In this document: piece after piece, positions 4,460 through 51,454 of the stretch | Layout: every line of letters starts with the position of its first letter | How positions within the stretch are numbered: position 1 is the first letter of the stretch | Assembly: GCA_036835125.1 (NCBI GenBank) | Contig: DAITMO010000001.1 | Span: 319,508 to 383,507, forward strand | Source: Patescibacteria group bacterium | GTDB lineage: Bacteria > Patescibacteriota > Microgenomatia > UBA8517 | Direction of reading: 5' to 3' | Length of the DNA stretch: 64,000 nt | The notes under the pieces: generated by a model | The model's database searches: none | What the model was told of the DNA's origin: nothing | The model's input: the letters and a program-made list of their open reading frames with translations, nothing else | Translations under genes and position numbers: made by a program

Positions 4460-5484
4460 AAGCAGGAGTTTTTAATCCATATCTTGATACATTGGGGGGA
4501 GGGGAAAGATACACTCTTTCCTTTGCTAAGGTATTGCAAAACAAGGGATATGAAGTTGATGTTGAGTGGAAGGATGTTGGTATCAAAAAAATTCTTGAAG
4601 AGAGATTTGGAATTGATTTAAAAGAAATAAATATAGTCCCTGATATCAAAAAAGGGGAGGGATATGATCTTTGCTTTTGGGTGTCAGACGGGAGTATCCC
4701 TTTAATGCACGGAAGAAACAATATTCTTCATTTTCAAGTTCCATTTCATAAGGTAAATGGAAAAAGTCTAATGAATAAAATGAAGATGTTTCGAATAAAC
4801 CAGATTGTATGTAATTCAGAGTTTACAAAGAAAGTCATTGATAAAGAGTTTGGAGTAAATAGTGTTGTTGTTTATCCGCCGGTTGATACTGGCAAAATAA
4901 AATCAAAAAGAAAAGAGAACATAATTCTATATGTTGGAAGATTTTCTAAAGTACTTCAAAGTAAGGGGCAGGAGCATTTGGTGGATGCTTTTAAAATTTT
5001 ATGTGACGGAGGAATAAAAGATTGGAAATTAGTTTTGGCTGGGGGAAATGAAGTTGGGGCTGAAAGTTTTATTAAAGAATTGAAAGCTCAATCTGAAGGA
5101 TATCCAATAGAAATAATTGAGAGTCCTGATTATAAAACCTTAGTTGATTTGTATGGAAAATCAAAAATATTTTGGAGTGCTGCTGGATTTGGAAAGGATG
5201 AAAATGTTAGTCCTGAGGTTATGGAACATTTTGGTATAACAGTTGTAGAGGCAATGGCAGGAGGGAATGTCTCAATAATTTATAATGGAGGTGGTTATAA
5301 GGAGATTGTTGAGAATTATACTAATGGCTATCTTTGGAATAGTTTGGATGAGCTGGTTGAAAAAACAAAAGAGATAATAGCAAATCCAAAAAAATTAAAC
5401 GAATTAGCAAGTGCGGCAAAAACATCTGTTCAAAAATATGGCATTAAAACTTTTGAAGAAAAAGTTTTCGAAATTATTAAATAA
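4456..5484 (+). CDS. GT4 (GT-B) glycosyltransferase
   Basis: C-terminal GT4 motif ...FGITVVEAMAGG...GG..EIV plus the ILYVGRFS...KG donor-binding region. ATGA overlap with the upstream gene. Confidence 0.75.
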   Translation: MKAGVFNPYLDTLGGGERYTLSFAKVLQNKGYEVDVEWKDVGIKKILEERFGIDLKEINIVPDIKKGEGYDLCFWVSDGSIPLMHGRNNILHFQVPFHKVNGKSLMNKMKMFRINQIVCNSEFTKKVIDKEFGVNSVVVYPPVDTGKIKSKRKENIILYVGRFSKVLQSKGQEHLVDAFKILCDGGIKDWKLVLAGGNEVGAESFIKELKAQSEGYPIEIIESPDYKTLVDLYGKSKIFWSAAGFGKDENVSPEVMEHFGITVVEAMAGGNVSIIYNGGGYKEIVENYTNGYLWNSLDELVEKTKEIIANPKKLNELASAAKTSVQKYGIKTFEEKVFEIIK

Positions 5485-7825
5485 GATTTGGCCGATTCTT
5501 CTGATATTGTTTTTTGTTGCCGTGTTTTTCTATCCTGTTTTTTTGAAAAAGCAGTTTCCAATACCGGGCGACTTTGTTGCTGGAACATATTTTCCTTGGA
5601 TGGACTATAAATGGGGTTTCCCTGTGAGAGTTCCTGTTAAAAATCCTGTAACTTCAGATGTTGTTTCAATAATTTATCCTTTGAGAACTTATGCAGTAGA
5701 CTTTCTAAAATCTGGACACTTACCACTTTGGAATCCCCTAATGTTTACCGGCACTCCTCTTTTTGCCGATTTTCAGGTTGCACTTTTTTCTCCTACTATT
5801 TTTTTATATTTTTTACTTCCCAAGATATGGGCATGGACGGGACAAATAATTTTACAGCCATTTCTTGCAGCCGTTTTTTGCTATTTTCTTCTTAGGAATT
5901 TTAAATTGGGAAAGATTGCTTCAGTTTTTGGAGGAATTTTTTATGCTTTTAGTTCATTCAATATTATTTGGATGGAATGGAATACCAACACTCTAACAGC
6001 AGCTTTTATTCCTCTTGTTTTTTTGTTTCTTGATAAATTTATTAGCTCCAGTAAAGCTCACTGGGGGATACTTTTTTCGGTGTCAATTTGTATGCAAATT
6101 TTGAGCGGCTACCCGCAACTTGTAATATTTACCCTATTATTTGCAGTAATTTATGTTCTTTTCAAAATTAAGCAATTTAATTTAAAGAAGCTTATTTTAT
6201 TATTTGTATTTATTATCTTGGGCATTGGCCTTTCTTCAGTTTTTTCTGTGCCGGCATCTGAACTTGTACTGAATTCTCAAAGGAAGTTTGAGCTTTTAAG
6301 CAGGGATTTGGTTTATCTTCCATGGAAAAATCTGGTTACAATCTTAGCACCTGATTATTTTGGAAATTCTGCGACCTACAACTACTTTTCTGACGGCAAC
6401 TATACGATTAATACAATTTACTCCGGTATTGTTGTTTTGACTCTGGCGATTATTGGGGTTTCAAAGTGTTTCGGAAGGAAAGAAGTAAAATATTTCACCT
6501 CAGTATTTTTTATTTCTATCATCTTTGCACTACCAACTGTTTTTGGGAAAATACTTTTTAACTCCCATATTCCTGGAATCTCTGCATCATCAAACACAAG
6601 AATATTAGTTTTTGCAAATTTTGCATTAGCAATACTAGCAGGATTTGGAATAACCAAAATTTTGGAAAAGAAAAAGATAAAACTGAAAAGAATGTTTGTG
6701 GCGGCAATTCCTCTTATCTTGCTTATTTTTATATTTATCTTTACCTATTTTTGGGGGATAAATAAAAATGTTTCTATTAGAAATTTGATATTGCCGTTTG
6801 GTTTATCAGGGTTAACGGTTGCGGCACTGATATTCCGGGAAAAAATATATTCATATAGTTTCTTAAAAAAAATCATTGTTGTTTCAGTTTGTGCTTTGGC
6901 AGTTTTTGAGCTTTTCAGATATGGATGGAAATACACTCCATATTCAACTGCTGATTTAATTTTTCCAAACACTCCAATATTGGAATATTTACAAAAAGAC
7001 AAGAGCGTTCACAGGGTTTCCTTGGGAAATACTGTTCCTATGAACATGCTCGTCCCGTACGGAATGGAAACTGTTTCAGGGTATGACGCTTCATATCCTA
7101 TTTGGTGGGCAAGATTTTTATATGCAATTAAAGGGCAAGATCCTGATGAACCGGGATTCAGTTATTATGCAGAATTTGACAGCTACTTCAGTGATTGGTT
7201 TGATATTTTAAATAATAAATATCTATTAGTGTTGGACCCTGAGCAAACCCATGATATTACAAATTCAAATTTGATCTATCAGGTCGAAAAAGATCCAAGG
7301 TTTGAAAAAGTTTTTCAGGACAAGTCAGTGATTGTCTATGAAAATAAGGAAGTATTTCCACGCGCATTCTTTATGAGTGATTGGGAATATGTTCCTGAGA
7401 GTGACACCTTGAAAGTCTTAAAGGATCCCAAGTTTCCTCTTAAAAATAAAATCACAATAGATAAGTATATTGATTTGGAAAAGAGTAAAAACACAAAGGC
7501 AATCATCTCTTATAAAGAGTATTCTCCAGAAAGAAACGTTATAGAAGTTAGTTCAACTGGAAATGGATTCTTGGTTGTAACGGATTCCTGGTATCCGGGG
7601 TGGAAAGTAAAAGTTGATGGGATTGATTCTCAAATATATAGAGCAGATTACATCTTTAAGTCGGTTCCTATTGGCAATGGGAATCATGTAATTGAGTTTT
7701 ACTATGAACCACTGTCTTTAAAGATTGGGAAGATCATAACTTTGGCATCTGGATTTATTTTATTGCTTGTTATATTGCTTCACAGAACGGTTGAAAGATT
7801 AATCATTGTGAGAAAGCGGGACTAG
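5438..7825 (+). CDS. YfhO-like polytopic membrane glycosyltransferase (GT-C fold)
   Basis: About 795 aa with many predicted TM helices. The C-terminal soluble domain has WYPGWKVKVDG...YRADYIFKSV characteristic of the YfhO family. Start is uncertain: ATG at 5438 is preferred (positively charged N-terminus before the first TM helix), the ORF-track GTG is at 5411, and either overlaps the upstream gene. Confidence 0.6.
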   Translation: MALKLLKKKFSKLLNKIWPILLILFFVAVFFYPVFLKKQFPIPGDFVAGTYFPWMDYKWGFPVRVPVKNPVTSDVVSIIYPLRTYAVDFLKSGHLPLWNPLMFTGTPLFADFQVALFSPTIFLYFLLPKIWAWTGQIILQPFLAAVFCYFLLRNFKLGKIASVFGGIFYAFSSFNIIWMEWNTNTLTAAFIPLVFLFLDKFISSSKAHWGILFSVSICMQILSGYPQLVIFTLLFAVIYVLFKIKQFNLKKLILLFVFIILGIGLSSVFSVPASELVLNSQRKFELLSRDLVYLPWKNLVTILAPDYFGNSATYNYFSDGNYTINTIYSGIVVLTLAIIGVSKCFGRKEVKYFTSVFFISIIFALPTVFGKILFNSHIPGISASSNTRILVFANFALAILAGFGITKILEKKKIKLKRMFVAAIPLILLIFIFIFTYFWGINKNVSIRNLILPFGLSGLTVAALIFREKIYSYSFLKKIIVVSVCALAVFELFRYGWKYTPYSTADLIFPNTPILEYLQKDKSVHRVSLGNTVPMNMLVPYGMETVSGYDASYPIWWARFLYAIKGQDPDEPGFSYYAEFDSYFSDWFDILNNKYLLVLDPEQTHDITNSNLIYQVEKDPRFEKVFQDKSVIVYENKEVFPRAFFMSDWEYVPESDTLKVLKDPKFPLKNKITIDKYIDLEKSKNTKAIISYKEYSPERNVIEVSSTGNGFLVVTDSWYPGWKVKVDGIDSQIYRADYIFKSVPIGNGNHVIEFYYEPLSLKIGKIITLASGFILLLVILLHRTVERLIIVRKRD

Positions 7826-7849: not shown

Positions 7850-8746
7850 ATGAGTAAATTTTCTGTTTCTGTTGTTATACCAAATCTAAATGGGGAAAAG
7901 CTTCTTGAAAAGAACTTGCCGTTTCTTTTAAAGGCAAAAGATAATCCAAAAAACAATATCATCGAAATAATAATAGTTGATGATGGATCTTGGGATGGAA
8001 GTGTAAAACTCATTACCAAAAATTTTCCCCAGGTTAAACTTATTAAGCATAAAGTAAATAGGGGTTTTTCTGCTGGGGTAAATACTGGAACCAGGATGGC
8101 AAAGGGGGACTTGGTACTTTTAATAAACACGGATGTTATTCCCTCCATTAATTTTCTTGAACCGGTTTTTAAACACTTTGAGGATAAGAGGGTGTTTGCT
8201 GTATCTTTGCATGAGAAAGGATATGGATGGGCAAGAGGAAGCTTTGGAGAGGGTTATATTCAGCTTGGGATGGGAGAAGAAACAAAAACTTCCCACAGGA
8301 GTTTTTATGTAAGCGGGGGAAGTGGAGTATTTAGAAGAAGTATCTGGATGGAACTTGGCGGAATGGATGAAAAACTTCTATCTCCTTTTTATTGGGAAGA
8401 TATTGATATTTGTTATCGGGCTGAAAAGAGAGGATATATAAATCTTTGGGAGCCGGAAGGAAAGGTTGAACACCATCATGAGTCCACCATTAGTAAGTTT
8501 CCAAAGTCATATGTCCAAAGAGTAAAAGAGAGAAATCAGCTTTTGGTTATCTGGAAGAATATTCATAGTCCAAAGCTTATTAGGAACCATATTGTAGGGA
8601 TTTTAAAAAGAGCAATTACTCATCCTGGATACTTTAGGATTATTTTTATGGCGCTTTCTAGATTTGGAATTGCAATGAATCACAGAAAGAAAGAGATCAA
8701 ACTAAGTAAAGTGTCGGACGAGGCGGTATTCATGCAGTATAAATAA
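7850..8746 (+). CDS. GT2 glycosyltransferase
   Basis: VSVVIPNLNGEKLL...IIVDDGSWDGS...NRGFSAGVNTG...LLINTDV is a GT-A signature. Confidence 0.8.
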   Translation: MSKFSVSVVIPNLNGEKLLEKNLPFLLKAKDNPKNNIIEIIIVDDGSWDGSVKLITKNFPQVKLIKHKVNRGFSAGVNTGTRMAKGDLVLLINTDVIPSINFLEPVFKHFEDKRVFAVSLHEKGYGWARGSFGEGYIQLGMGEETKTSHRSFYVSGGSGVFRRSIWMELGGMDEKLLSPFYWEDIDICYRAEKRGYINLWEPEGKVEHHHESTISKFPKSYVQRVKERNQLLVIWKNIHSPKLIRNHIVGILKRAITHPGYFRIIFMALSRFGIAMNHRKKEIKLSKVSDEAVFMQYK

Positions 8747-8758: not shown

Positions 8759-9589
8759 ATGGGCATAACGCTATCTATCGTAATAGTTAATTTAAATACT
8801 AAGGATCTGACAGTGGGATGCATCAGGTCAATTGAGAAATGGGCAAAAGATTTATCTTTTGAAGTTCTTTTGACAGACAATGGCAGTAATGATGGTTCAG
8901 TTGAGGCTTTCAAGGGAATCAAAAAAGAGAAATATTGGAAAGATAGATTCACATTAATACTAAATGATAGTAATACTGGCTATGCAAAAGCGAATAATCA
9001 GGGAATTAAGAAAGCAAAGGGAAAATACATACTTCTTTTGAATAATGACACAGTTGTTCACAAGGATGCACTTCAAAAACTTGTAGAGTTTGCTGATATT
9101 ACACCTGATGCTGGTGTAGTTGGGAGCCGCCTTCTTAATATTGATGACACACTTCAAATGTCTTGCTATCACTTTCCTACAATTACGAACGCAATAAAGG
9201 AATATTGGTTTGGCAAGAAAGGACTGTTTGAAAAATTTGCTCCAAAGGGAGACACTCCTATCACAGTAGACTCTGTTGTTGGTGCAGCATTTCTTATAAC
9301 TCCCGAAGCAAAAAAGAAAGTTGGAATATTGGACGAGAGGTATTTTGCATATTTTGAGGATATAGACTACTGCAGGCAGACTTGGAAACAGGGGCTAAAA
9401 GTCTATTATCTTCCAGACTCTGTAATAACTCACTATCATGGGGCAACATTTAAAAAGTTGGCTAATGAGGCTGAGCGTTGGAAAAGGCTTATTCCTTCAA
9501 GCAAAGTCTATCACGGACTTTTTAAACACTATTTTATAAACGCTATTTTATGGTTAGGACAAAAAAAGAATAAGCTGTTACAAAAATAG
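8759..9589 (+). CDS. GT2 glycosyltransferase
   Basis: LSIVIVNLN...LLTDNGSNDGS...NTGYAKANNQGI...LLLNNDTVV is a GT-A signature. It is a paralog of 7850..8746. Confidence 0.8.
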   Translation: MGITLSIVIVNLNTKDLTVGCIRSIEKWAKDLSFEVLLTDNGSNDGSVEAFKGIKKEKYWKDRFTLILNDSNTGYAKANNQGIKKAKGKYILLLNNDTVVHKDALQKLVEFADITPDAGVVGSRLLNIDDTLQMSCYHFPTITNAIKEYWFGKKGLFEKFAPKGDTPITVDSVVGAAFLITPEAKKKVGILDERYFAYFEDIDYCRQTWKQGLKVYYLPDSVITHYHGATFKKLANEAERWKRLIPSSKVYHGLFKHYFINAILWLGQKKNKLLQK

Positions 9590-9600: not shown

Positions 9601-11148
9601 ATGATTAAGATTTTAAAAAAGAATTGGAAATTTATTCTCATACTTTTTATTTTGTTGAGTTTAAGTGTGGGGATTAGACTTATCAATCTCACAAAGATTC
9701 CTGTATTTGCTGATGAAGCAATTTATGTCAGATGGTCTCAAGTGATGAGGGCGGAACAAACCTTGAGATTTTTGCCTTTAAGCGATGGAAAACAACCTTT
9801 ATATATGTGGCTTGTGATTCCGTTTTTCAAAGTATTTTCTGATCCACTTTTTGCAGGAAGATTTGTTTCTATAATGTCTGGAATTGGGACATTACTGGGA
9901 ATAATAACTCTTTCCTACTTACTCTTTAAAAACAAAACAGTTACAGTTGTTGCTGCATTATTTTATGCACTTTCTCCGTTTACATTTTTCTTTGACAGGA
10001 TGGCGCTTGCCGATTCACTTCTTTCAATGTTTGGGATTTGGACATTTATATTTGCATATTTGGCAGTTAGCAAACAAAGATTGGACTTTGCAATGCTTAC
10101 AGGGTTTGCTCTAGGGGGAGCTTGGCTTACAAAATCACCAGCACTTTTCTTTACCCTCATGCTTCCAGTTTTTTGGCTATTTGCTCCATGGAAGAAGGAA
10201 AAGAAAGAAAACTTATTGGTCTTAGGGAAAACTATTTTCTTTACACTTGTAGCAGCGGCAATCGGATACGGTTTTTATAACATTTTAAGACTTGGTCCAA
10301 ACTTTCACCTTATTTCCTCAAGGAATATGGATTATGTTTATCCAGTTAGTCACATATTTGAAAGACCTTTTGATCCTTTGAAGACTTTCATAATTGCAAG
10401 TTTCAAATGGTACTTTGTGATGGGACCTATTTCTTTATTGGTTCTTGGGGTAACTGGTACTATTTCTAACATTAAAAAATTTTGGAAAATAATTGCTATT
10501 CTTTTATTCTGGTTTTTGGTTCCTCTTGTTATCCAGTGTGAGTTTGCTAAAACCCTGACTGCAAGATACATTCTTTATCCTTTGCCTTATTTGATGATTT
10601 TGGCGGCATCTTTCTTTGTTACAAAAAAGAATTTGTTTAAAAAGATTGGATTTTTATTTGTAATTCTTTTCGTCGTTCAATCAAGTATTTTTGTTTACAA
10701 TTTAATAACCAATCCTGAGAGGGCAAATCTTCCAAGGGTTGAGAGATCAGGATACCTGGAGGAATGGACTGCAGGACAAGGAATAAAGGAAACTGCAGAC
10801 TATTTAATAAACGAAGAAAAGAATAATCCTAATGAGCAAATTGTGATTGGAACTGAAGGATATTTTGGAACGCTTCCTGACGGACTTCAAATGTATTTAA
10901 ATGATCATCCTAGAATTGTTGTGATTGGAGTGGGTTTGAATTTTGATAAACTCCCAAATTCTCTTTATGAATCCAAAAAAGCTGGAAACAAAACTTATTT
11001 ACTTGCAAATACATCAAGGTATTATGGAGATCCTGAGGAAAAAGGTTTAACTCTTATTGCTGAATATCCAAAAGCAGAAAAACCTAATGGAACATATGAA
11101 TCACTACTTCTTTTTGAGGTGACAAATGTTGAAAGTATTCAGAAATAA
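9601..11148 (+). CDS. GT39/PMT_2 (ArnT-like) polytopic membrane glycosyltransferase, GT-C fold
   Basis: First-loop DE motif (PVFADEAIYVRWSQ) after TM1, many TM helices, and a C-terminal soluble domain. Length 515 aa. Confidence 0.65.
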   Translation: MIKILKKNWKFILILFILLSLSVGIRLINLTKIPVFADEAIYVRWSQVMRAEQTLRFLPLSDGKQPLYMWLVIPFFKVFSDPLFAGRFVSIMSGIGTLLGIITLSYLLFKNKTVTVVAALFYALSPFTFFFDRMALADSLLSMFGIWTFIFAYLAVSKQRLDFAMLTGFALGGAWLTKSPALFFTLMLPVFWLFAPWKKEKKENLLVLGKTIFFTLVAAAIGYGFYNILRLGPNFHLISSRNMDYVYPVSHIFERPFDPLKTFIIASFKWYFVMGPISLLVLGVTGTISNIKKFWKIIAILLFWFLVPLVIQCEFAKTLTARYILYPLPYLMILAASFFVTKKNLFKKIGFLFVILFVVQSSIFVYNLITNPERANLPRVERSGYLEEWTAGQGIKETADYLINEEKNNPNEQIVIGTEGYFGTLPDGLQMYLNDHPRIVVIGVGLNFDKLPNSLYESKKAGNKTYLLANTSRYYGDPEEKGLTLIAEYPKAEKPNGTYESLLLFEVTNVESIQK

Positions 11149-12508
11149 ACTATTACCAATAATTAAAAAATATTTGCCAATTATTTTTATTGTACTATTG
11201 GCACTATTTTTGCGTACATATTTACTTCCAACTCGCGCTCTGTTTGATGCTGATCAGGAGGAAATTGCTTTTAAAGCAAAGGAAATTCTTTCTGGAAATC
11301 CTGTTCTTTTAGGACCCAAAACGAGTTTGGGTGGATTTTCAATCGGGCCAGGATTTAGTTATATTTGGGCATTTTTCTCTGTATTAACAAAAGGTCATCC
11401 TATTGCAGGAGCTTATGCCTCGATATTTTTAGGAATACTTACTATTGTGGGTATTTATTTTATATCAAGAAAAATTTTTTCAGAGAAAGTGGGACTAATT
11501 CTTTCTTTTATAATTGCTTTTTCAAACTCCTTCATAGCATGGGATCAAGGTCCTTGGGCACCTTCACTGTTTCATATTTCAGAGATAATTATTTTTTACG
11601 GACTCTATATTTCAAAGAAGAGCAAAATGGGAATACCTTTAATAGCATTAGGTTTAGTTATGGCATTTCAATCACATTTTGCGGTGTTTTTGTTGATCCT
11701 CCCAATTGTAATTTACTTACTTGTATATAAGCCGATGATTAGTAAAAAAACCTTTATTGTTACCTTGTTAATACTATTGATAGGTGTCATGCCTCTTTTG
11801 GTTTATGACATTCTTCATAATTTTGTGAATTTTAATCGTCTTATTTCTGTTTTTTCTTTAGGTGTTTCAGGAGTGCCACCTTCAAAATTAAAATTAATTT
11901 ATACTCTCATTCAAAACTCAGTAAGTGTAATAGTGGTGAGTTTGCCCATTTTTCTCAGGTACGCTATTTTTATTTTGTTAATGGGTATAACTGTTTTTGG
12001 AATATTTAAAGATAAAAAATATCGATCACTAATTCTATTATTTCTTCTTTTTATATTTGTTCCTTTAATTGAGTTTATGTTTTATAGTTCAAGCTTCTCC
12101 GAATATTATCTTATGACAGTAGTAACTCCCTTTGTGTTTATTTTAGGGTATTTGTTAAGCAAAATTAAAAACAATACTCTAATTATTATTGCCTTGATTT
12201 TGTTTTTGGTTCAAAACATGAGAGCTTTTATAAATTTTAAAAGGTCTATCAATCTTGGAGCAAAAGACAGAGTTGTTCAAAAAATAGTGGAAATGGAAGG
12301 GTTTTCAGGTTATGGAGTGTCTATTAGTACAGAACCTGGACAAAATTTCGGTTTTTCATATTTATTTGATTACTACAAAGCTACACCAAACATTCCTCCA
12401 AAAAGTGGAGAGGAAAAAATATTTACAATAATAGTTCCTCCTGGATTTGATGGTATTGAGCCAATTTTTGCTGTTGATGGAGTGGGACTTCGTTGGGAGG
12501 GGATATGA
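11126..12508 (+). CDS. polytopic membrane protein, GT-C-like (ArnT/PMT_2-related)
   Basis: N-terminal TM helix followed by an acidic loop (FDADQEEIAF) and about 12 TM helices. A strong RBS (GAGGTG) sits 5 nt upstream of the ATG. The ORF overlaps the upstream gene by 23 nt. Confidence 0.5.
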   Translation: MLKVFRNKLLPIIKKYLPIIFIVLLALFLRTYLLPTRALFDADQEEIAFKAKEILSGNPVLLGPKTSLGGFSIGPGFSYIWAFFSVLTKGHPIAGAYASIFLGILTIVGIYFISRKIFSEKVGLILSFIIAFSNSFIAWDQGPWAPSLFHISEIIIFYGLYISKKSKMGIPLIALGLVMAFQSHFAVFLLILPIVIYLLVYKPMISKKTFIVTLLILLIGVMPLLVYDILHNFVNFNRLISVFSLGVSGVPPSKLKLIYTLIQNSVSVIVVSLPIFLRYAIFILLMGITVFGIFKDKKYRSLILLFLLFIFVPLIEFMFYSSSFSEYYLMTVVTPFVFILGYLLSKIKNNTLIIIALILFLVQNMRAFINFKRSINLGAKDRVVQKIVEMEGFSGYGVSISTEPGQNFGFSYLFDYYKATPNIPPKSGEEKIFTIIVPPGFDGIEPIFAVDGVGLRWEGI

Positions 12509-12560
12509 ACGGAATTGCTTAAATTATAATCTGAAATTATAATTCTTGAAGAGATTATCT

Positions 12561-28398: not shown

Positions 28399-28408
28399 AT
28401 TCAAAGTC

Positions 28409-29878: not shown

Positions 29879-29897
29879 AGCTGGTAACATTTAGTAT

Positions 29898-37100: not shown

Positions 37101-39208
<2,108 letters not shown>

Positions 39209-39209
<1 letters not shown>

Positions 39210-39865
39210 TGAATATAACAATAGTTGTCCCTTTCTATAACGAGAAAAAACATATAAAAGAAGTGGTTGATGGTCTTTCTTCTTACAGGCTTCCTGTTGT
39301 TGTGGTGGATGATGGGAGTAGTGATTCCTATGCATTAAAAAACAGTCCGAAAGTTACTCTTTTGAAGCACAAGATAAATTTGGGAAAGGGAGCTGCAATG
39401 AAAACTGGAACAGATTTTGCATTTAGTAACGGCGCAGATGCAGTTATCTTTATGGATGGAGATAATCAGCATAAGCCTGAGGATATTAAGAAATTTATTG
39501 AAGTTCTTCAAACCGGTAAGTACGATGCTGTGTTTGGAGCAAGGAACTTCAATTACAGTGTTCCCTTAATTAGGTATATGGGCAATAAAGTTGTTTCCAT
39601 GCTTCTTAGAATTCTTTTTGGAATATACGTATCTGACGTTCTTTGTGGATTTAAGGCGTTGACAAAGAAAGCGTATAAAGCGGTTTATTGGGAATCTACT
39701 GGGTATGGAGTTGAGACTGAAATGATTGCAAGGTTTGGTAAAAATAAACTGACATACAAAGAAGTTTCAATAGAAGCGATTTACCACGATAAAGTTAAGG
39801 GTGTCACAGTTTTGGATGCGTTTGGTATAATGGGACAGATAGTTAAGTGGAAGCTAACAATCTAG
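39209..39865 (+). CDS. GT2 polyprenyl-phosphate sugar synthase (DPM1/GtrB-like)
   Basis: ITIVVPFYNEKKHI...VVVVDDGSSD...GKGAAMKTG...IFMDGDNQHKPEDI is a DPM1-like GT2. It is short (218 aa) and single-domain. Confidence 0.7.
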
Positions 39866-42435: not shown

Positions 42436-43095
42436 ATGAAAACTATTGTAGAAAAACATTTTGATGAAGTTGCAGACACCTATGATACTGGCAAGAAGCG
42501 ATATTCATATTATTATTCAAGTTTAAAAAAGCTTCTAAGTAATTTAATTGGTAAAAACAAAAAAGTGTTTGAGTTTGGTTGTGGAACAGGGGACTTACTT
42601 GTCTCACTTAATCCGAAGTTGGGATTTGGAATGGACATTAGTAAGAAGATGATTGAAACTGCAAAGAAAAAACATTCAAGTAAAAAGAATGTTGTGTTTT
42701 CGACTTCAATGCCAAAGGGGAAATTTGACTACATTTTTTTGAGTGACGTGGTAGAACACTTGAGTGATCACAAAAATACTTTTAAAGACTTAAAAAGAGT
42801 AATGAATGGTGATGCAAAGATAATTGTTACAATGGCTAATCCTATCTGGGAACCTCTATTAATGTTATGGGAGACACTTGGCTTAAAAATGAAGGAAGGG
42901 AAACACAAAAGGGTGGGATATAGGGAATTGAAACATATATTGGAGAATCTTCACTTAAGGGTTGTCAAACATGACTACAAACTTCTTATCCCAATTGAAG
43001 TTCCTTTTATAACTAACTTTGCAAATAAATACTTAGAAAGATCATTGAAAAAGCTTTGTTTCATTGAGTATTTTGTCGTGGAGCGTGAACACTAG
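42436..43095 (+). CDS. class I SAM-dependent methyltransferase
   Basis: Motif I VFEFGCGTGDLLVSL and motif post-I FLSDVVEHL. Confidence 0.75.
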   Translation: MKTIVEKHFDEVADTYDTGKKRYSYYYSSLKKLLSNLIGKNKKVFEFGCGTGDLLVSLNPKLGFGMDISKKMIETAKKKHSSKKNVVFSTSMPKGKFDYIFLSDVVEHLSDHKNTFKDLKRVMNGDAKIIVTMANPIWEPLLMLWETLGLKMKEGKHKRVGYRELKHILENLHLRVVKHDYKLLIPIEVPFITNFANKYLERSLKKLCFIEYFVVEREH

Positions 43096-44316: not shown

Positions 44317-45294
44317 TTATTTTTTGATAAGCATTAATATTAATCCAATTATCTTTTCTTTATCTTTTGGATTGCTCTCAGCCACTAACAAGGTTAAAGC
44401 AGTTAATGCCTCAGGGGAAATTTTTGAAACATTTAAAATATTGGCTTTCTTTAGAAACCAAATAAATGCAAAAGCTCCACTTCTTTTGTTTCCATCGACA
44501 AATGGATGTCCTTTTGCAATAAAGTAAAGCAAATGTGCAGCCTTTTCTTCCAAAGTTGGATATAAATCCTTTTTTCCATATGATTGAAGAATATTTCTAA
44601 CAATAGAATCTATTTCTTCACCTTGTTTTCCTTGACCAAAAAGATTAGTGGCGTTACCCAGATCAATAAGGTTTGTTTTTAGATCAAACAATGCCCTTGT
44701 CAATTCATCAGAAGTTATATCTATTTGTCTTTTAGTACTGCCTTTTGTTGGTAATCCTGACTTGTCATACGTATCAAGAGATAGCCAAGTTGAAGCAAAC
44801 AGTTTTACTAAATCTAGAACATCGGATGTTCTTAGTTCATTGTTTTCAGGAAGATACTTTTTAACATTATCTACAGCTTGCAAAAATGATTGATAATTTT
44901 TAGTTAAACGTTTTTTATTGATAGTATAACCTTGCAAGATGTGTTGTCTTAGTGTTTTGGTGGCCCACTGGCGAAATTTTGTAGCTTTTTTAGAATTGAC
45001 GCGATATCCTATAGATAAAATTAGGTCTAAATTATAGTATTCTATTTTTCTTTTTACCCATCTACCACCCTCATTTTGAACTGTTTCCATTTTGGAAACA
45101 GTTGAACTTCTATCAAGCTCTCTTGTTGCAAATATATTATTGACGTGTTTGGATATTGCTGCTTTTTGAACATCAAAGAGTTTGCCAATTTGAGGTTGTG
45201 TTAAAAATATGTTTTTCCTGGTTTCATCAAACCTGACTTCAACAGCTCCATCGCTGCCTTGATAAACGATTATTTTATTATTTCCATTTGCCAT
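44317..45294 (-). CDS. RhuM-like N-terminal domain fused to Fic/Doc-family domain (Doc-like motif)
   Basis: N-terminal KIIVYQGSDGAVEVRFDETRKNIFLTQPQIGKLFDVQKAAISKHVNNIF matches the RhuM virulence-protein family. C-terminal HPFVDGNKRSGAF is a Doc-type motif (HxFx[DN]GNKR) that lacks the second Arg of the AMPylating Fic motif. Confidence 0.75.
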   Translation of the reverse strand: MANGNNKIIVYQGSDGAVEVRFDETRKNIFLTQPQIGKLFDVQKAAISKHVNNIFATRELDRSSTVSKMETVQNEGGRWVKRKIEYYNLDLILSIGYRVNSKKATKFRQWATKTLRQHILQGYTINKKRLTKNYQSFLQAVDNVKKYLPENNELRTSDVLDLVKLFASTWLSLDTYDKSGLPTKGSTKRQIDITSDELTRALFDLKTNLIDLGNATNLFGQGKQGEEIDSIVRNILQSYGKKDLYPTLEEKAAHLLYFIAKGHPFVDGNKRSGAFAFIWFLKKANILNVSKISPEALTALTLLVAESNPKDKEKIIGLILMLIKK

Positions 45295-45340: not shown

Positions 45341-46333
45341 ATGTTTAGTCATATTATACTTGAAGCTATGCGTGAGGTTAAAGTACTTATAAAAAAACCT
45401 TTTGTTCAGTATTTTTTATTTTTTCTCATAGTAGCCACTTATGGAGTTCTCTTTTTGGAAGTAATTAAGTATCCTGGATTCTTCAAAAACTATTTTTTTG
45501 TTGATGCAAAGATCATATTTGCTGCTTCAATATTTCTTTTGACTTTTCTTAACACAAAAACAAAACTGATGCCTCTAGTGTTTAAGATTAACAATATTTT
45601 ATTAGTTGTTCTTACTGCATTATATTTGGGTCTATATCTGCTTGAAGGAGCAAACTATACGAATTATGTTCTTTCAAAATTTGGATTTCATTTAGATGGA
45701 CTAATTCTTCCTGTTCTTTTTGGATTTTTTATTTTTCTTGTTCAAAAGTTTAAAGACGAAGTAGTTAATTTTGGAAAGAAAAGTAAAGTATATCCAGTAT
45801 TTGTACTTTTGATAGTCTATTTTGTGGTTAGAAATTTGAGCTACTCTTTGGAAATGGGAGTTTCCAGGACTTCTTATATTCTTTTCCATTTAGGGAACAC
45901 TTATGACGAAAAGATGACATACCAGTGGGGAGTTTTTTATGACTTTATGTCATTTATCAAAAATAATACTCCGTTAGACTCAACAATTATTATTCCTCCA
46001 GAAGAAGGAGCTTGGCTTATGGGGACAGGGGAACCAAATTTTGTTAGAGCATTCCTTTATCCAAGAACAATTGTTCCAGAAACTCTAATTATTTCTGATG
46101 AGAAAATAGAATCTTATAATGATAATACTTACATTTTAATTTCTTGGGGGCAAGAAGCGTGTCGTCCAGATCCAGATTGTCATGGTTGGCCAAAACAAAA
46201 AATTAAAACTTTTGAAATAATTTATAAAAAACCTGATTCAAGTGACGTAGCTGAAATCAAAAAAGATACTATTTATGATCCTGATAGTAAAACGTATGTA
46301 TATGGTTTGATTAAACCGTTAGTAACTAATTAA
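45341..46333 (+). CDS. hypothetical polytopic membrane protein (cassette copy A, gene 1)
   Basis: N-terminal half has about 6 TM helices. C-terminal soluble domain YDEKMTYQWGVFYDFMSFIKNNTPLDSTIIIPP...AFLYPRTIV is homologous to 49228..50136. Confidence 0.45.
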   Translation: MFSHIILEAMREVKVLIKKPFVQYFLFFLIVATYGVLFLEVIKYPGFFKNYFFVDAKIIFAASIFLLTFLNTKTKLMPLVFKINNILLVVLTALYLGLYLLEGANYTNYVLSKFGFHLDGLILPVLFGFFIFLVQKFKDEVVNFGKKSKVYPVFVLLIVYFVVRNLSYSLEMGVSRTSYILFHLGNTYDEKMTYQWGVFYDFMSFIKNNTPLDSTIIIPPEEGAWLMGTGEPNFVRAFLYPRTIVPETLIISDEKIESYNDNTYILISWGQEACRPDPDCHGWPKQKIKTFEIIYKKPDSSDVAEIKKDTIYDPDSKTYVYGLIKPLVTN

Positions 46334-46336
46334 ATT

Positions 46337-47674
46337 ATGTTCCTATCTATTTTATTTATACTACTTATAACTTTTGGAATTGGTTTACCATTGGTTTTGT
46401 TGATTGCACCAAAGGCTAACACTTTTATAAAACTTGGACTTTCTTTTCCGATTGGGATTGGGATTTTTACACTTCTAATGTTTGGGGCAAACCTTTTAGG
46501 GTTAAGGTTCACATTACTAAATGAATTACTTCTTCTGTTGGTAATTTCTACCCCTTTGGTTTTGATTCAATTGAAAAAAATAAAGTTGTTGTTTAAGGAA
46601 ATAAAAAAGAGAATTAAAAACTCAAAGTTTGATTTGGCAGAAAAGATTATATTGGGAATATCGGCCTTTCTTATCGTTGTAAGTTTTATTAATACTTTTT
46701 ATTGGCCTGTTTACATGTGGGATTCTGTTGTTCTTTATGATTTTAGAGGACACGTGTTTGCTTCAACTGGTTTTATGAAAGATGTTTTTATTAATCCGTA
46801 TTATTATAGTTACCCGCTTTTAACTTCACTCACCCATACAATAGTTTATCTCTGTGGTGGAAAATATCCTCAGTTTATTTATTCGATCTTTTACTTGTCA
46901 CTAGGGATTTCTTTTTATGGGCTTTTGAGAGAATTTGTTTCTAGAAAAACGGGACTTATTTTTACATTGCTACTTTTAATGACTGGACCACTTTTTTATC
47001 ACTCACTATATTCCTACACAAACCTTACTTATACAGTTTATTTAAGTCTTGGAGCAATTCTAATATACCTTTGGGACAAAAAGGGGAATATTGGATACCT
47101 GATTTTGTCAGCTCTTATGGTAGGTCTCTCAACGTGGGTTAGGGCAACTGAGCCGTTTTGGTTGGCATCAATATTGATTGTTGTTGTGATATCAATTTTA
47201 AGAAAAAAGATATTAGGATTATTTATATATCCTTTAATTGTGGTCTTAATCCATGAAGTTTGGAGAAATTATCGAATCTTTTTGGCGAGTACTAGTAAAT
47301 CAACTGTAGCGGAAGTTGCTTCGTACACAGGAATATTGCCTTCAATATTTGATTTGGAAAGATGGAGACAAATAATTGTTTATTTATATAAATATACAAT
47401 TATTCCATGGGGATCCATATTCATTGCCTTTATTTTAGCCTTGGTTGTTATCATTTTTCAAAAGAAACTTAAAAAATTCTGGTTGGTATTTACTATTACA
47501 ATAGTTTTCTTAGCTGTCGTTGTTTTAGGGACACTATATTATAGTTTGACTTTTATTGACTGGTATCGAATTGGAGATGCAGTTGAACGTCTCTCTATGA
47601 TTTTTTATCCGTTGTTTGTTTATTCTTCGTTCTTGGTACTGTATGATTTAGGCAGTAAAGAAAAACATGATTAA
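46337..47674 (+). CDS. polytopic membrane protein, putative GT-C-like (cassette copy A, gene 2)
   Basis: YWPVYMWDSVVLYDFRGHVF...YPLLTSLTHTIVYLCGG..PQFIYSIFYLSLGISFYGL is homologous to 50138..51454. Confidence 0.45.
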   Translation: MFLSILFILLITFGIGLPLVLLIAPKANTFIKLGLSFPIGIGIFTLLMFGANLLGLRFTLLNELLLLLVISTPLVLIQLKKIKLLFKEIKKRIKNSKFDLAEKIILGISAFLIVVSFINTFYWPVYMWDSVVLYDFRGHVFASTGFMKDVFINPYYYSYPLLTSLTHTIVYLCGGKYPQFIYSIFYLSLGISFYGLLREFVSRKTGLIFTLLLLMTGPLFYHSLYSYTNLTYTVYLSLGAILIYLWDKKGNIGYLILSALMVGLSTWVRATEPFWLASILIVVVISILRKKILGLFIYPLIVVLIHEVWRNYRIFLASTSKSTVAEVASYTGILPSIFDLERWRQIIVYLYKYTIIPWGSIFIAFILALVVIIFQKKLKKFWLVFTITIVFLAVVVLGTLYYSLTFIDWYRIGDAVERLSMIFYPLFVYSSFLVLYDLGSKEKHD

Positions 47675-49238
47675 GTTTCTGAAAAATAAATGGCCCATTC
47701 TGACTATTGTTGCTTTCTGGTTACCGATAACCTTTTATAATACCAAGATTTATTGGATGTTGGTTGATGATGGTGGTGATGTTGTTTTTGCGAGAACATT
47801 ATTTGAAAAGTTTTCTCATCTCTATATTGGACAATTTATATCACAACTCCTTGAAACAGGGGGAAGGTTTCGCCCTATATATTGGTTTTATCACACTTGG
47901 GTGTGGCTGATCGGGGGTAACAGTTTTCAATTTCAACATTTTGCACACATGATTGTTATAGGAATAACAGTTCTTTTTATATATTTAATTGTACATGAAA
48001 TATCTAAATCAAAAGTGTTGGCACTTTTTGCATCATTTTTTTATTTTTTTGTTCCACTCAATACAGAAAATATAATGAGGCTTGGTCCTCAGGAACCCCT
48101 CATGGCTATGTTTTTTGCGATTTTTTTCTACCTTGTTATTAAAACCAAAAAAATATTTTTATCGTCTCTGATGCTTGCCTTGGCTGTATTTACCAAAGAA
48201 ACTGCATTAGCTATTTTGCCGATTATATTTATTTATTATCTATATGAAAAGAAAAACTCTTCCAATAAAGATCTAAAAATTAGTTTCAGGTTGTTGTTCA
48301 CAGTTGGAACATCTGCGTTGATCATGATACTCATTACCTTCTTAAGAAGGAGCGGTTACAGCACAAATTATTCTTTTGATGCACAGATGATTATGAAAAA
48401 TATAATTGTCTACTTTAGAGAATTAACAATTGGCACTTCTGGTATATTTCCGTTTGTTCCATCACTTTATCTGCTTAGGAACGTAAGAAAAATAATTAGA
48501 AAACAGCAATTTTTTGAAACAAGAATTGATTTATTCGAATTTTTATTTTTTGGAGCCTTCTTGTGTTTCTTGGTAATTCAGCTTCCATGGGCCTACGCCC
48601 TTACGCGTTATCTAATGCCCGCAATTTTATTCCTTACATTATTTATGTTTTTAGAAATATATCAGAATATTCTAATTCTGCGTAAGTTTAATTTTGTCAA
48701 AAAACATTCAAAATCTTTTACAATATTATCAATACTATTGGTTTTTTACACAATGTCATTATGGTGGTTGGATGTTGTTTTAAAAGAAAGTTCATCAGCA
48801 TCTTACCAAAATGTCTATCAGGAAATATCAAAAGTTCCACAAAATACAGTTATATTGATGAATATGGCAGAAGGTGAATCTACAATGGAATTGGTATATG
48901 AAATACAAGTCATTTTGAATGAATTCTGGGATAGAAGAGATATAAGGTCAGAATATCTGGACATGGATAATTTACCAGATGAGAAATACATAATAATAGA
49001 CTCAGCACAGTTTCTTAGAAAATATCCAAAAGAAGAATTGATAAGAGTTTTCGGAAAAGAGTTCTATTCTACTGAAAATGTTTCCAGAAGATTAGTGTTA
49101 ACAACACCCCTCGAGTTAATAAAACAATCGCTTAAAAAAGTAATTAATGCAATTTTATATAAAAAAGAATTCAGTCCAGAAGGTATTTATACATATTATC
49201 AAAGTTACAGTAATTGGTATTTTTTCAATGAAAAATAA
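47667..49238 (+). CDS. polytopic membrane protein, putative GT-C-like
   Basis: 523 aa with MLVDDGGDV acidic loop, GGRFRPIYWFYH, and FAVFTKETALAILPI typical of the ArnT/PMT-like core. C-terminal soluble domain. Confidence 0.4.
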   Translation: MIKFLKNKWPILTIVAFWLPITFYNTKIYWMLVDDGGDVVFARTLFEKFSHLYIGQFISQLLETGGRFRPIYWFYHTWVWLIGGNSFQFQHFAHMIVIGITVLFIYLIVHEISKSKVLALFASFFYFFVPLNTENIMRLGPQEPLMAMFFAIFFYLVIKTKKIFLSSLMLALAVFTKETALAILPIIFIYYLYEKKNSSNKDLKISFRLLFTVGTSALIMILITFLRRSGYSTNYSFDAQMIMKNIIVYFRELTIGTSGIFPFVPSLYLLRNVRKIIRKQQFFETRIDLFEFLFFGAFLCFLVIQLPWAYALTRYLMPAILFLTLFMFLEIYQNILILRKFNFVKKHSKSFTILSILLVFYTMSLWWLDVVLKESSSASYQNVYQEISKVPQNTVILMNMAEGESTMELVYEIQVILNEFWDRRDIRSEYLDMDNLPDEKYIIIDSAQFLRKYPKEELIRVFGKEFYSTENVSRRLVLTTPLELIKQSLKKVINAILYKKEFSPEGIYTYYQSYSNWYFFNEK

Positions 49239-50136
49239 AATTTTATTCAATTTAATAAATGCATTATTATTAACGCTTCTAGCAAGTTCATTGGTTGAGG
49301 CGTTTACTTATTCAGGGTTTTTGATAAAACATTTTGGTTTGGGAATTGGTTTAGCGCTTCTTTCTATATTTGCACTATCGTTTTATCTTTTTAGAAAAAT
49401 TTATAAAAATTCAATTATCATGAAAATGCTTGTTATGGCGACATATTTGATGACTATTCTTTACCTTATTTTTAGTACTTTAGAAAAGATTAATTATTCA
49501 AATTATGTTTTTAGCCACTTTCACCTTCATCCGTATTTGTTTTTGTTATCAACAATATTAATGTCCTTATTATTTCTGATAAACGACAAAACGACAAAAG
49601 TAAATATATACATCTATGTAGTTTTGTTTATTGTTTCGTTGCAATATCTAATTAATGGTGCGACAGAAATAAGTAGGTCACACATCGGCTTCATGTTTAA
49701 AAATATAAATGCAAATTATAATGAGAAAATGGAAGTTTTGGTAGAAAAAATTCCTTATGATTTCGCGATGTTTATCAAAAACAATACACCTGAGAATTCA
49801 ACAATATTAATTCCACCTCAATCCTATCCTTGGGACAAAACAAGCAATGTTGGATATTTGAGATATTTCTTGTATCCAAGGAATCTCATCAATGGTGGTG
49901 AAAAAAATTCTGCTGTAGATTTAAGTACGATTGATTTTGTATTAATTGATTATGGAGAGACAAATATTTCAGAAAATGGTTTTACAAATGTTTGGCCAAA
50001 GTTTGACGTAAAAGGAAATAGTATACTTTATTGGAATCCTGAGACAGGAGAGACGATAGAAGACAAAACAGGAATTTATAAATATAACGAGAATGACAGG
50101 TCTGAAAAATGGGGAATAATAAGGATTAAGCATTAA
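49228..50136 (+). CDS. hypothetical polytopic membrane protein (cassette copy B, gene 1)
   Basis: YNEKMEVLVEKIPYDFAMFIKNNTPENSTILIPP...YFLYPRNLI is paralogous to 45341..46333. The ATG at 49228 overlaps the upstream stop by 11 nt; the ORF extends to 49147. Confidence 0.4.
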   Translation: MKNKILFNLINALLLTLLASSLVEAFTYSGFLIKHFGLGIGLALLSIFALSFYLFRKIYKNSIIMKMLVMATYLMTILYLIFSTLEKINYSNYVFSHFHLHPYLFLLSTILMSLLFLINDKTTKVNIYIYVVLFIVSLQYLINGATEISRSHIGFMFKNINANYNEKMEVLVEKIPYDFAMFIKNNTPENSTILIPPQSYPWDKTSNVGYLRYFLYPRNLINGGEKNSAVDLSTIDFVLIDYGETNISENGFTNVWPKFDVKGNSILYWNPETGETIEDKTGIYKYNENDRSEKWGIIRIKH

Positions 50137-50137
50137 T

Positions 50138-51454
50138 ATGTTGATAATACCTTTTCTTTTGTTGTTACTTTTTTTGGGTTTACTTATAACAATTACCCTG
50201 AAGATTAAGGTTGGGTTGGTCGAAAGACTTTCTCTTTCTTATCTTTCAGGAATCGGGATTTCTACTTTCTTTGTTTTTGCTTTTGACATCATTTTTAATA
50301 TCAATTACAGTATTAATAATACTTTCTCCATTCTAATATGTCTTTGTGTGATTCTTTTTGCAATTAAATACAAGGACACAGTTGAATTTTTAAGAACTGT
50401 TAGATTTGTTAAAAAACCTTTGAAATGGCAGACTGTTTTATTTTGGTCATTTGTTTTATTGTTTTTTACTTACACACTTTTAAAGAACGCTTACTGGCCA
50501 ATTTCTGATTGGGATGCTTTAGCAATGTACGATTTCAGAGCAAAAGTTCTATTAGTTAATTCGAATTTGGTACAAGCCGCTCTAACTAACGGCTATTTTA
50601 TTGGATATCCACTTCTCACCTCTTTGGGCCACCTTTTTGTCTATCAGATTGGACTGAATAATCCAAAATTTATATATAGTTTGTTTTATCTTTCTTTTGT
50701 TTGTATATTTTACTATTCGCTTAAAAGAAACATTAGTGAAAATAAAGCAATGTTCTATTCTCTCTTGCTTTCCATGATTCCGGAAATATTTTCCCATGCC
50801 ACAATGGCATATACTAATCTGCCCTATACAATTTATTTGTGTTCAGGAGTTTTTTATTTGTATGAGTGGATTAGAAGTAAGAAACTTTCCTGGTTATTGA
50901 TATCTGCCGTAATGGTAAGTTTGTCTATCTGGGTGAGATTTTCTGAGCCTTTTTGGTTTGTTCCAGTTCTAGTCGTAATTACAGTTTCCTTCAAACAAAG
51001 AAAATGGCTGTCAATTATTTATTATTTATTTTTTATTTTGATTTCTTGGGGTTTTTGGAATTATTTCACAGTTTTTATGAACACAATGATCCAACCTAGT
51101 TTGAAAGCCTCAATTCCCAGTGTAGTTTCCGTTGGAAAAATGACGATTTTAACCAGGACTTTGATGGTATCAGATTTTCTTTATAAATACGTCTTTTCTA
51201 CATGGGGTTTGGTGTTCTTACTATATATTTTGGCAACTTTTAGGGCATTTACGGATAAATACAAGTATATCTTATATATAAATTTACTCTTCTTTGTAAT
51301 TCTATTTGTTGGGACATTTAGTTTTGCTAACGCCTACCCACGTTGGCAAGACATTCCTGATTCAGCTAGAAGAATGAGTATATTTTTCTTACCATTAATG
51401 ATCTTTTCAACAGCCATCTATATGGAAACACGTTCAAAACGATCAATTCAATGA
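50138..51454 (+). CDS. polytopic membrane protein, putative GT-C-like (cassette copy B, gene 2)
   Basis: YWPISDWDALAMYDFRAKVL...YPLLTSLGHLFVYQIG..PKFIYSLFYLSFVCIFYYSL is paralogous to 46337..47674. Confidence 0.45.
   Translation: MLIIPFLLLLLFLGLLITITLKIKVGLVERLSLSYLSGIGISTFFVFAFDIIFNINYSINNTFSILICLCVILFAIKYKDTVEFLRTVRFVKKPLKWQTVLFWSFVLLFFTYTLLKNAYWPISDWDALAMYDFRAKVLLVNSNLVQAALTNGYFIGYPLLTSLGHLFVYQIGLNNPKFIYSLFYLSFVCIFYYSLKRNISENKAMFYSLLLSMIPEIFSHATMAYTNLPYTIYLCSGVFYLYEWIRSKKLSWLLISAVMVSLSIWVRFSEPFWFVPVLVVITVSFKQRKWLSIIYYLFFILISWGFWNYFTVFMNTMIQPSLKASIPSVVSVGKMTILTRTLMVSDFLYKYVFSTWGLVFLLYILATFRAFTDKYKYILYINLLFFVILFVGTFSFANAYPRWQDIPDSARRMSIFFLPLMIFSTAIYMETRSKRSIQ

Follow-up and report, generated by a model that had tools for sequence, protein, structure and literature searches.

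A 64,000-nucleotide stretch of DNA from a Patescibacteria group bacterium (GenBank assembly GCA_036835125.1, contig DAITMO010000001.1, positions 319,508 to 383,507 of the forward strand; hereafter the window) encodes 20 polytopic glycosyltransferases of the GT-C type within 46 kb. Here we document the families of these proteins, the predicted fold of one family, their gene order and its conservation among related genomes, and we think it rather probable that the locus specifies a multi-step pathway in which the 20 enzymes assemble a glycan outside the cytoplasm. The DNA comes from a Woesebacteria-like member of the Candidate Phyla Radiation (CPR; Patescibacteria, Microgenomates) whose genome is probably smaller than 1 Mb, and the array forms the center of an island of glycan-biosynthesis genes that exceeds 80 kb. 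The locus is present on the 643-kb contig CAYUBF010000001.1 of metagenome-assembled genome GCA_964443015.1, and further window proteins are found on a 778-kb contig. The window has a GC content of 34%, and nearly all of its genes lie on the plus strand with stops and starts that overlap or nearly abut.

To take the census of the array, we scanned every window open reading frame (ORF) of at least 150 residues against Pfam, applying the curated cut-offs, and a hydropathy scan identified 24 polytopic ORFs with at least five predicted transmembrane helices (TM) between positions 5411 and 51454. These comprise 20 GT-C-like proteins, two accessory membrane proteins, one transporter of the major facilitator superfamily (MFS) and one Wzx flippase. 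GT-C coding sequence amounts to 30.8 kb, or 67% of the interval 5438-51454 and about 4-5% of contigs of 643-778 kb. Fifteen of the 20 are recognized by a direct Pfam match above cut-off or by structure search, and the other five by paralogy or profile comparison. They are listed here and are named below by the first position of the gene.

5438-7825, plus strand: YfhO-type GT-C of 795 residues with about 12 TM (Pfam YfhO 3.9e-19, 69 bits, cut-off 28.5)
9601-11148 (ADE motif) and 11126-12508, plus strand: two PMT_2 (ArnT/Pmt-like) GT-C (50.1 and 31.2 bits)
15309-17042, plus strand: 25093-family GT-C, encoded immediately after Wzx (shares 31% identity with 25093, E 3e-76)
17076-18773 (QDD), 18754-20430 (QDN) and 20378-22069 (SDD), plus strand: three PTPS_related-type paralogs, with these motifs after TM1
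22076-23326 and 23323-24534, plus strand: two GT87/PIG-M-like GT-C (GT87 30.7 and 29.6 bits, cut-off 25; Mannosyl_trans 31.1 bits)
25093-26955, minus strand: GT-C of a Pfam-less family with a predicted oligosaccharyltransferase (OST)-like fold, 615-620 residues, the only minus-strand GT-C
26983-28398, 28370-29878, 29898-31559, 31556-32911 and 32908-34506, plus strand: five consecutive PMT_2 GT-C (PMT_2 30-80 bits)
37097-38269, plus strand: PIG-V-like (GT76-type) GT-C (Mannosyl_trans2 3.9e-11, 43.4 bits, cut-off 22.4)
40997-42433, plus strand: divergent PMT_2-type GT-C, HDD motif after TM1, no Pfam match of its own
46337-47674, plus strand: probable GT-C, partner of 45341 and paralog of 50138 (E 1e-59; PMT_2 only 17.2 bits)
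47667-49238, plus strand: probable PMT_2-like GT-C, VDDGGD motif after TM1
50138-51454, plus strand: probable GT-C, partner of 49147 (PMT_2 28.6 bits, cut-off 26.1)

Fourteen of these proteins score above the cut-offs of YfhO, PMT_2, PTPS_related, GT87, Mannosyl_trans or Mannosyl_trans2 and thus match the GT-C clan CL0111, to which most of these Pfam families are assigned (PMC7801869). The PMT_2 cut-off (26.1 bits) is exceeded by 9601, 11126, 26983, 28370, 29898, 31556, 32908 and 50138; altogether eleven members resemble PMT_2, four of which also reach or exceed the cut-off of the PMT model, and the PMT_2 group profile matches the ArnT structure 5ezm at 3.4e-4. Each of the five enzymes in 26983-34506 carries a DE motif after TM1 and has syntenic orthologs in the related loci L006-L018. 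Among the PTPS_related-type proteins, 17076 and 18754 score 36.4 and 30.8 bits on that model, and 20378, which scores 24.8 bits on PMT_2, below the cut-off, is a full-length paralog of both (E values among the trio of 1e-64 to 1e-109). The C-terminus of the YfhO protein 5438 matches PgfM1/PgfM2 at 4e-7, and PF13231 is present in homologs that share 45-50% identity with 40997 and bear the name glycosyltransferase family 39.

An all-against-all hhalign comparison, carried out with shallow profiles built from the window paralogs and their orthologs, joins these families into one connected network. The 9601/11126 pair aligns with the main PMT_2 group at 98%, PMT_2 with PTPS_related at 95-96%, PTPS_related with YfhO at 97% (with 95-97% for the 17076/18754/20378 group against the PMT_2 and YfhO groups), PMT_2 with 40997 at 82% and PMT_2 with the 25093 family at 74%, and the controls, Wzx and the MFS protein, reach at most 1.5% to every GT-C group. 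Protein 47667 aligns with the PMT_2 core at 93% (E 3.6e-7), the reverse run giving only 60%; Protein Data Bank sequence searches with 47667 and with the 46337 group returned zero matches. We rejected 47667 as a Wzy/EpsG polymerase, a minor possibility, given an EpsG score of 25.7 bits below the cut-off of 30.1, the better PMT_2 alignment and the DD motif.

Topology and motif placement are shared across the array. The 20 proteins have 6-12 predicted TM, and in most of them TM1 falls around residues 4-20 and TM2 around residues 88-114. All harbor an acidic motif (DE, DD, HD, WD and similar) after TM1, where GT-C enzymes carry their catalytic first-loop motif, or, in 46337 (WD...YD) and 50138, after the fourth TM. 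For one family, the predicted structure has the three-dimensional GT-C fold (see below). The three polyprenyl-phosphate-sugar-synthase-like genes of glycosyltransferase family 2 (GT2) and the Wzx gene in the locus suggest, as genomic context, that the 20 enzymes may use lipid-phosphate-linked donors.

This census bears out much of an earlier note on this DNA. The large array that it described stands, its count of about 22 GT-C-like proteins being reduced to 20 because the predicted model of the 45341/49147 family, here assigned to an accessory family of its own, yields no GT-C match. Hidden Markov model searches, profile comparisons and one structure search confirm its YfhO, PMT_2 (with DE loop), DUF2029 (now GT87), PIG-V and "unclassified" families. 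The interleaved Wzx (Polysacc_synt_3 1.1e-56) and MFS (MFS_1 3.8e-21) proteins are real, the GT2 genes at 1..198 and 39209..39865 do find polyprenyl-phosphate sugar synthases as their best matches, below the equivalog cut-offs, and the gene start at 5438 agrees with public assembly calls (795 residues). The note had asked whether most of these proteins might be transporters or unrelated membrane proteins; transporters account for two of the 24. To its figure of one to three GT-C enzymes in typical bacteria, mycobacteria, which have many, are a known exception.

The Pfam-less family formed by 25093 and 15309 provides the structural evidence. A word-indexed search recovered 617 homologs of this family, and the 120 best listed have zero Pfam domains and, where they bear a source name, are called "hypothetical"; an exhaustive profile search, with sequences clustered at 50% identity, retrieved 1674 clusters, of which 869 score below 1e-30. 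An AlphaFold2 model built from a 43-sequence alignment is confident (pLDDT 86, pTM 0.87), and when used as a Foldseek query its best 13 matches are all catalytic subunits of oligosaccharyltransferases (E 1.4e-9 to 3.2e-7), followed by DPY19 and AftA, with PMTs appearing only near E 0.05. The GT-C fold of the 25093/15309 family is therefore predicted to be closest to that of STT3/AglB/PglB. In archaea and eukaryotes, enzymes of this kind join N-glycans to proteins. Three motifs are conserved among 25093 orthologs, H99-D100 (first loop), T335-M-I-V-E339 (a flexible loop) and W526-D-W-F-D530 (C-terminal domain); the latter two are nearly invariant among the orthologs and absent from the paralog 15309. 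They are similar, not identical, to TIXE/SVSE of loop EL5 and WWDYG of the C-terminal domain, which we take to be the OST motifs. At the sequence level, no STT3 match was obtained for 25093, either in Pfam up to E 5 or in a Protein Data Bank sequence search with the family profile, and because such a match is lacking we use "oligosaccharyltransferase-like" for a predicted structural resemblance, not for established membership.

The neighborhood of this family is informative as well. The 15309 gene directly follows that of Wzx, and in another genome the 1639-residue protein P0336 joins a Wzx ortholog of 51% identity through a spacer to a 15309-like protein, which together suggest that the 15309 type acts on a flipped lipid-linked oligosaccharide. 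Roughly 30 of the 150 best relatives of the family (P0309, P0314, P0317 and others) are 950-1170 residues long; in the five long relatives that we examined, an N-terminal region of about 450-540 residues precedes the 15309-like GT-C, with no Pfam match and with TM only at the extreme N-terminus. The gene beside 25093 is as follows.

24537-25142, plus strand: conserved 201-residue protein with one N-terminal TM and no Pfam or family match

It is convergent with 25093, the 3' ends overlapping by 50 bp, and its ortholog lies beside the 25093 ortholog in nine of 13 related loci, the other four starting downstream or being without a 25093 ortholog. The 24537 protein could be a partner or a substrate-handling protein.

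To place the array in the context of related genomes, we compared it with 13 species-level relatives, defined as GTDB genomes with a homolog of the PMT_2 protein 32908-34506 at 51-65% identity. Record titles assign them to Candidatus Woesebacteria, the Microgenomates group or the Patescibacteria group, and five are titled "uncultured Gammaproteobacteria bacterium" (L006, L007, L008, L017 and L018); on a Woesebacteria-type locus, the latter titles are probably placeholders or wrong labels. One-to-one orthologs in the 13 genomes mostly share 50-80% identity (lowest 36%, for 37097), and they retain the order 17076, 18754, 20378, 22076, 23323, 24537, 25093 (minus strand), 26983, (28292), 29898, 31556, 32908, GT2, short-chain dehydrogenase/reductase (SDR), GT4 and 37097, downstream of which the related species differ. 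The same locus recovered from assemblies SRR3330210 and ERZ724081/83/84 is at least 99.97% identical at the nucleotide level, with zero indels across the recovered stretches. Within the window, the paralogs share 26-37% identity. The picture is one of a fixed core with more plastic flanks, and the divergence of the paralogs, the syntenic orthologs and the lack of indels fit 20 old, distinct and non-redundant GT-C enzymes with fixed roles.

A top paralog identity of 37% rules out recent tandem amplification, and the synteny of 13 genomes together with the absence of indels among samples rules out strain variability of the core, so that the "hyper-expanded arsenal" of the earlier note, if read as recent or variable, does not hold. 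Its proposed comparison with sister genomes shows the array to be conserved, and its suggestion that each paralog has a different specificity agrees with old, non-redundant paralogs that each have an ortholog of their own.

The four remaining polytopic proteins are accessory or transport proteins.

12546-13802, plus strand: MFS transporter (MFS_1 3.8e-21)
13859-15352, plus strand: Wzx-type flippase for lipid-linked oligosaccharide, 13 TM (Polysacc_synt_3 1.1e-56)
45341-46333, plus strand: accessory membrane protein, first copy, with 5-6 TM and a C-terminal alpha/beta domain (true start probably 45368)
49147-50136, plus strand: accessory membrane protein, second copy (29% identity, E 1.5e-25, to 45341)

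Proteins 45341 and 49147 (about 310 residues) have no Pfam match, their predicted model gives no GT-C match, and we regard the two as accessory subunits. Downstream of each lies a 46337-type GT-C of about 440 residues, with 47667 located between the two modules. The pairing of accessory protein and GT-C is also found in L019-L021, from an aquifer genome of OP11 type, where L019 carries one module, and the two module copies in 45341-51454 share only 29-31% identity, which indicates an old duplication. That the MFS protein is a carrier or flippase is speculative.

Interleaved with and flanking the array are the following glycan genes, including cytoplasmic (Leloir) glycosyltransferases.

1-198, plus strand: 3' end of a GT2 gene resembling polyprenyl-/dolichyl-phosphate sugar synthases (249 residues; full gene L023:3579-4328)
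1521-2417, 2793-3731, 3716-4459 (weak), plus strand: cytoplasmic Leloir GT2 enzymes (Pfam)
4456-5484, plus strand: cytoplasmic Leloir GT4 enzyme (Pfam)
7850-8746 and 8759-9589, plus strand: two cytoplasmic GT2 enzymes (Glycos_transf_2 3e-23 and 1e-26; NCBIfam MftF-like and rhamnosyltransferase-like)
34517-35359, 35366-36073 and 36105-37100, plus strand: GT2, SDR and GT4 (Pfam), kept in related loci
38274-39209, plus strand: NAD-dependent sugar-nucleotide epimerase/dehydratase (Epimerase 1.3e-52)
39209-39865, plus strand: polyprenyl-phosphate-sugar-synthase-like GT2, 218 residues (AglJ 1.5e-28, PpgS 3.4e-26)
39873-40205, plus strand: small DUF2304 membrane protein, 110 residues (DUF2304 7e-19)
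40218-41000, plus strand: cytoplasmic GT2 (Pfam 6.8e-30)
42436-43095, plus strand: methyltransferase (Pfam)
43099-44304, minus strand: GT2 with a C-terminal half like dolichyl-phosphate (Dol-P)-hexose synthase (AglJ 3.9e-29, Dol-P-hexose transferase 2e-16)
51451-63996, plus strand: sugar-precursor and Leloir-glycosyltransferase module (GT2, methyltransferases, acetyltransferase, epimerases, GT4, DegT aminotransferase, kinase, HAD, SDR)

The GT2 that ends at 198 finds PgfS (6e-19), Dol-P-hexose transferase (6e-13) and ArnC (1e-12) as its best NCBIfam matches. The 39209 GT2 reaches 92 bits against PpgS, a model with an equivalog cut-off of 370, and the pair that it forms with the DUF2304 protein recurs in L019-L021. 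We take the mycobacterial protein Rv3632 to be a DUF2304 protein as well. In Mycobacterium tuberculosis, Rv3632 stabilizes PpgS (Rv3631) (PMC6487176). In the N-terminal part of the third candidate synthase, 43099 on the minus strand, residues 56-134 align with no more than the C-terminal half of Methyltransf_23; this class I methyltransferase fragment may reflect a fusion or be what remains of a domain. The remaining GT2 and GT4 proteins look like ordinary nucleotide-sugar-dependent enzymes. The downstream module has features of a nonulosonic-acid-type pathway, with a CMP-sugar-synthetase-like protein at 59433, DegT at 60208 and a hexapeptide acetyltransferase at 53872, and a polysialyltransferase-like protein is encoded at 57329 (PF07388 3.6e-10); just outside the window lies a 638-residue NeuB fusion with an AP_endonuc_2 domain (module L024, 5095-7706).

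The island extends beyond the window on both sides, with a further PMT_2 gene (495 residues) and then a DHH-family gene upstream. Downstream (L024), the NeuB fusion is accompanied by three more GT-C-like genes, two of PMT_2 type and one for a DUF8201 membrane protein, and by another Wzx. Between 48000 and 58000, GC content falls to 28-30%, compared with 33-37% elsewhere in the window; within this stretch lie the second of the two modules (49147/50138) and some of the sugar-modification genes, and the drop suggests that the segment was acquired separately or is evolving faster. Toxin- or defence-type genes are also found inside the island: 210-1304 encodes a Fic protein that includes Fic_N, and 44317-45294 a fusion of RhuM and Fic, both on the minus strand. 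A relative (L019, 4942-5601) has AbiEii where 44317 would be, and another (L013, 2102-3109) has a RhuM/Fic-like gene between the orthologs of 24537 and 25093. The occurrence of such genes at several sites in the window and its relatives points to repeated insertion into the array.

In the pathway that we favor, cytoplasmic enzymes would make activated sugars, from which soluble GT2 and GT4 enzymes would build a lipid-linked primer that Wzx would flip across the membrane. The three DPM1/AglJ/PpgS-like GT2 enzymes, one with its DUF2304 partner, would load single sugars onto polyprenyl phosphate, and at the outer face each GT-C would add a particular sugar in a particular linkage, thereby extending and branching a complex surface glycoconjugate, or a few of them. 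Enzymes of the 25093/15309 type might then transfer or ligate the flipped oligosaccharide to its final acceptor. A more far-reaching version of this scheme, which we regard as doubtful, holds that CPR Woesebacteria/Microgenomates carry an unrecognized divergent OST in the 25093 family, that the array is a bacterial counterpart of the lipid-linked oligosaccharide assembly line of the endoplasmic reticulum (ER), that its product is transferred en bloc to surface proteins, and that the 45341+46337 pairs are two-subunit GT-C enzymes.

Several points weigh against the sequential pathway. Donors, order of action and acceptor are all features that we infer, and many parallel acceptors fit the data as well as one sequential pathway does. 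All matches to polyprenyl-phosphate-sugar-synthase models fall far below the equivalog cut-offs, and the evidence for 46337/50138 and 47667 as GT-C proteins is weak. Neither a priming phosphoglycosyltransferase of the WecA/WbaP type nor a GtrA-type flippase was found by Pfam among window ORFs of at least 150 residues, and no candidate acceptor such as an S-layer protein or pilin is encoded nearby. Furthermore, a GT-C fold is not equivalent to catalysis, PIG-U being an inactive member (PMC7801869).

The main rival to this pathway, to which we assign a low probability, is that each GT-C places the initial sugar on its own type of secreted or surface protein, or on its own polymer, in the manner of protein O-mannosyltransferases of the Pmt/PMT type and of the Pgf/YfhO systems, so that the array is a battery of independent "first-sugar" transferases working in parallel. 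The eleven PMT_2-like members, including the four at or above the PMT cut-off, would suit such a role, as would the similarity of the YfhO protein to PgfM1/PgfM2, which glycosylate adhesins, and the presence of only three candidate donor synthases for 20 transferases. The array, however, mixes GT-C proteins of five families that differ in structure, PIG-V, PIG-M/GT87 and OST-like types among them, whose known examples extend glycans or transfer them en bloc and do not start them; the many cytoplasmic glycosyltransferases, two Wzx proteins and nonulosonic-acid genes point to complex oligosaccharides, and acceptor-binding MIR or TPR domains were not detected. Given the five-family mixture and the oligosaccharide-building genes, this explanation fits less well than the sequential pathway.

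A second explanation, which we judge improbable, views the array as a horizontally shuffled set of enzymes that alters the surface coat between strains and so aids evasion of phages or hosts. Such shuffling would be in keeping with the Fic/RhuM genes, and AbiEii in relatives, inside the island, the GC content of 28-30% at 48-58 kb and the differing regions downstream of 37097, all of which are outweighed in the core: 17076-37097 keeps its order and one-to-one orthologs in 13 species-level relatives, recent duplicates are lacking (top paralog identity 37%), and samples of the same population differ by zero indels. For the core, this explanation is thus largely refuted. Finally, that most of these proteins are transporters or structural membrane proteins merely resembling GT-C is very improbable and holds only for 45341/49147, since the five proteins without a Pfam match and the precedent of an inactive GT-C fold in PIG-U are set against Pfam, paralogy, profile and structure matches and conserved acidic first-loop motifs, with only the MFS and Wzx proteins serving transport.

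The components of the sequential pathway are enzymes of known superfamilies, and its closest functional parallels come from several known systems. In the synthesis of mycobacterial arabinogalactan and lipoarabinomannan (LAM), many GT-C enzymes extend an envelope glycan outside the membrane with polyprenyl-phosphate monosaccharides made by small GT2 enzymes (PMC3485146). The window shares with the arabinogalactan/lipomannan/LAM system (Emb, Aft, PimE, Mpt) its many GT-C enzymes and polyprenyl-phosphate-sugar logic, and with the mycobacterial PpgS/Rv3632/Rv3779 (galactosamine) system a GT2 with a small membrane partner (39209 and DUF2304); AftA, AftB, AftD, EmbA and PimE are all among the structural matches. 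It differs from mycobacteria in having no Pfam match to Arabinose_trans (Emb-type) or AftA_N, and, whereas mycobacterial GT-C genes are scattered over a 4.4-Mb genome, 20 are found here in one 46-kb co-directional array. The N-glycan pathway of the eukaryotic ER has the same division of labor, with soluble glycosyltransferases (ALG Leloir enzymes), a flippase of the Wzx/RFT1 class, GT2 enzymes like Dol-P-sugar synthases (DPM1/ALG5), a series of GT-C enzymes (lumenal ALG3/9/12/6/8/10) and an STT3-like fold. ALG12, ALG9, STT3 and the glycosylphosphatidylinositol (GPI) mannosyltransferase GPI-MT-I are among the top structural matches, and the Pfam matches include the GPI mannosyltransferases PIG-M and PIG-V. 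The resemblance to the eukaryotic N-glycan and GPI pathways is one of logic and fold only, without orthology or an STT3 Pfam match, and the host is a bacterium.

Bacterial systems offer partial likenesses. In the Gtr, CsbB-GtcA-YfhO and PgfS-PgfM systems, a GT2 synthase and an extracytoplasmic GT-C, of YfhO type in some, decorate teichoic acids, O-antigen or adhesins, and the window has both a YfhO protein and a PgfS-like GT2; each of these systems has one GT-C and a GtrA-type flippase, whereas the window has 20 GT-C enzymes and no GtrA match among the ORFs scanned. As in the Wzx/Wzy pathway, a Wzx is present (1e-56); the sole Wzy-like signal is the sub-threshold EpsG match of 47667, and the chain-length regulator Wzz was not found in the window. 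Among the OSTs PglB/AglB/STT3 (GT66), the predicted fold of 25093 finds its closest match, without one in sequence. The eleven PMT_2-like members share the DE/DD first-loop motif with ArnT and bacterial Pmt (GT83/GT39). To our knowledge, CPR bacteria do not make lipid A, the molecule modified by ArnT, and a bacterial Pmt is usually single, whereas eleven divergent PMT_2-like proteins are found here.

In the searchable literature we found nothing relevant on such GT-C arrays or on oligosaccharyltransferases in CPR, Patescibacteria, Microgenomates or Woesebacteria; one pilus paper gives pilin O-glycosylation in Saccharibacteria as a prediction only. Three features thus appear to be undescribed there: an array of this size and density in an ultra-small genome, conserved gene for gene; a large OST-like GT-C family without a Pfam match; and the paired accessory family. 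The locus provides a concrete list of enzymes for metatranscriptomes and glycoproteomes and two uncharacterized families worth defining, 25093/15309 and 45341, the former possibly a new OST-like lineage relevant to the evolutionary history of the N-glycosylation machinery. CPR bacteria have tiny genomes that lack most biosynthetic pathways, those in cultivation live attached to other microbes, and the chemistry of their envelopes is almost unknown. This organism, with a genome probably smaller than 1 Mb, retains about 31 kb of GT-C genes and tens of kilobases of supporting glycan genes, which are kept gene for gene across related species. Such retention is an argument for giving an elaborate glycoconjugate at the cell surface a central place in its biology, with possible roles in attachment, host recognition or protection.

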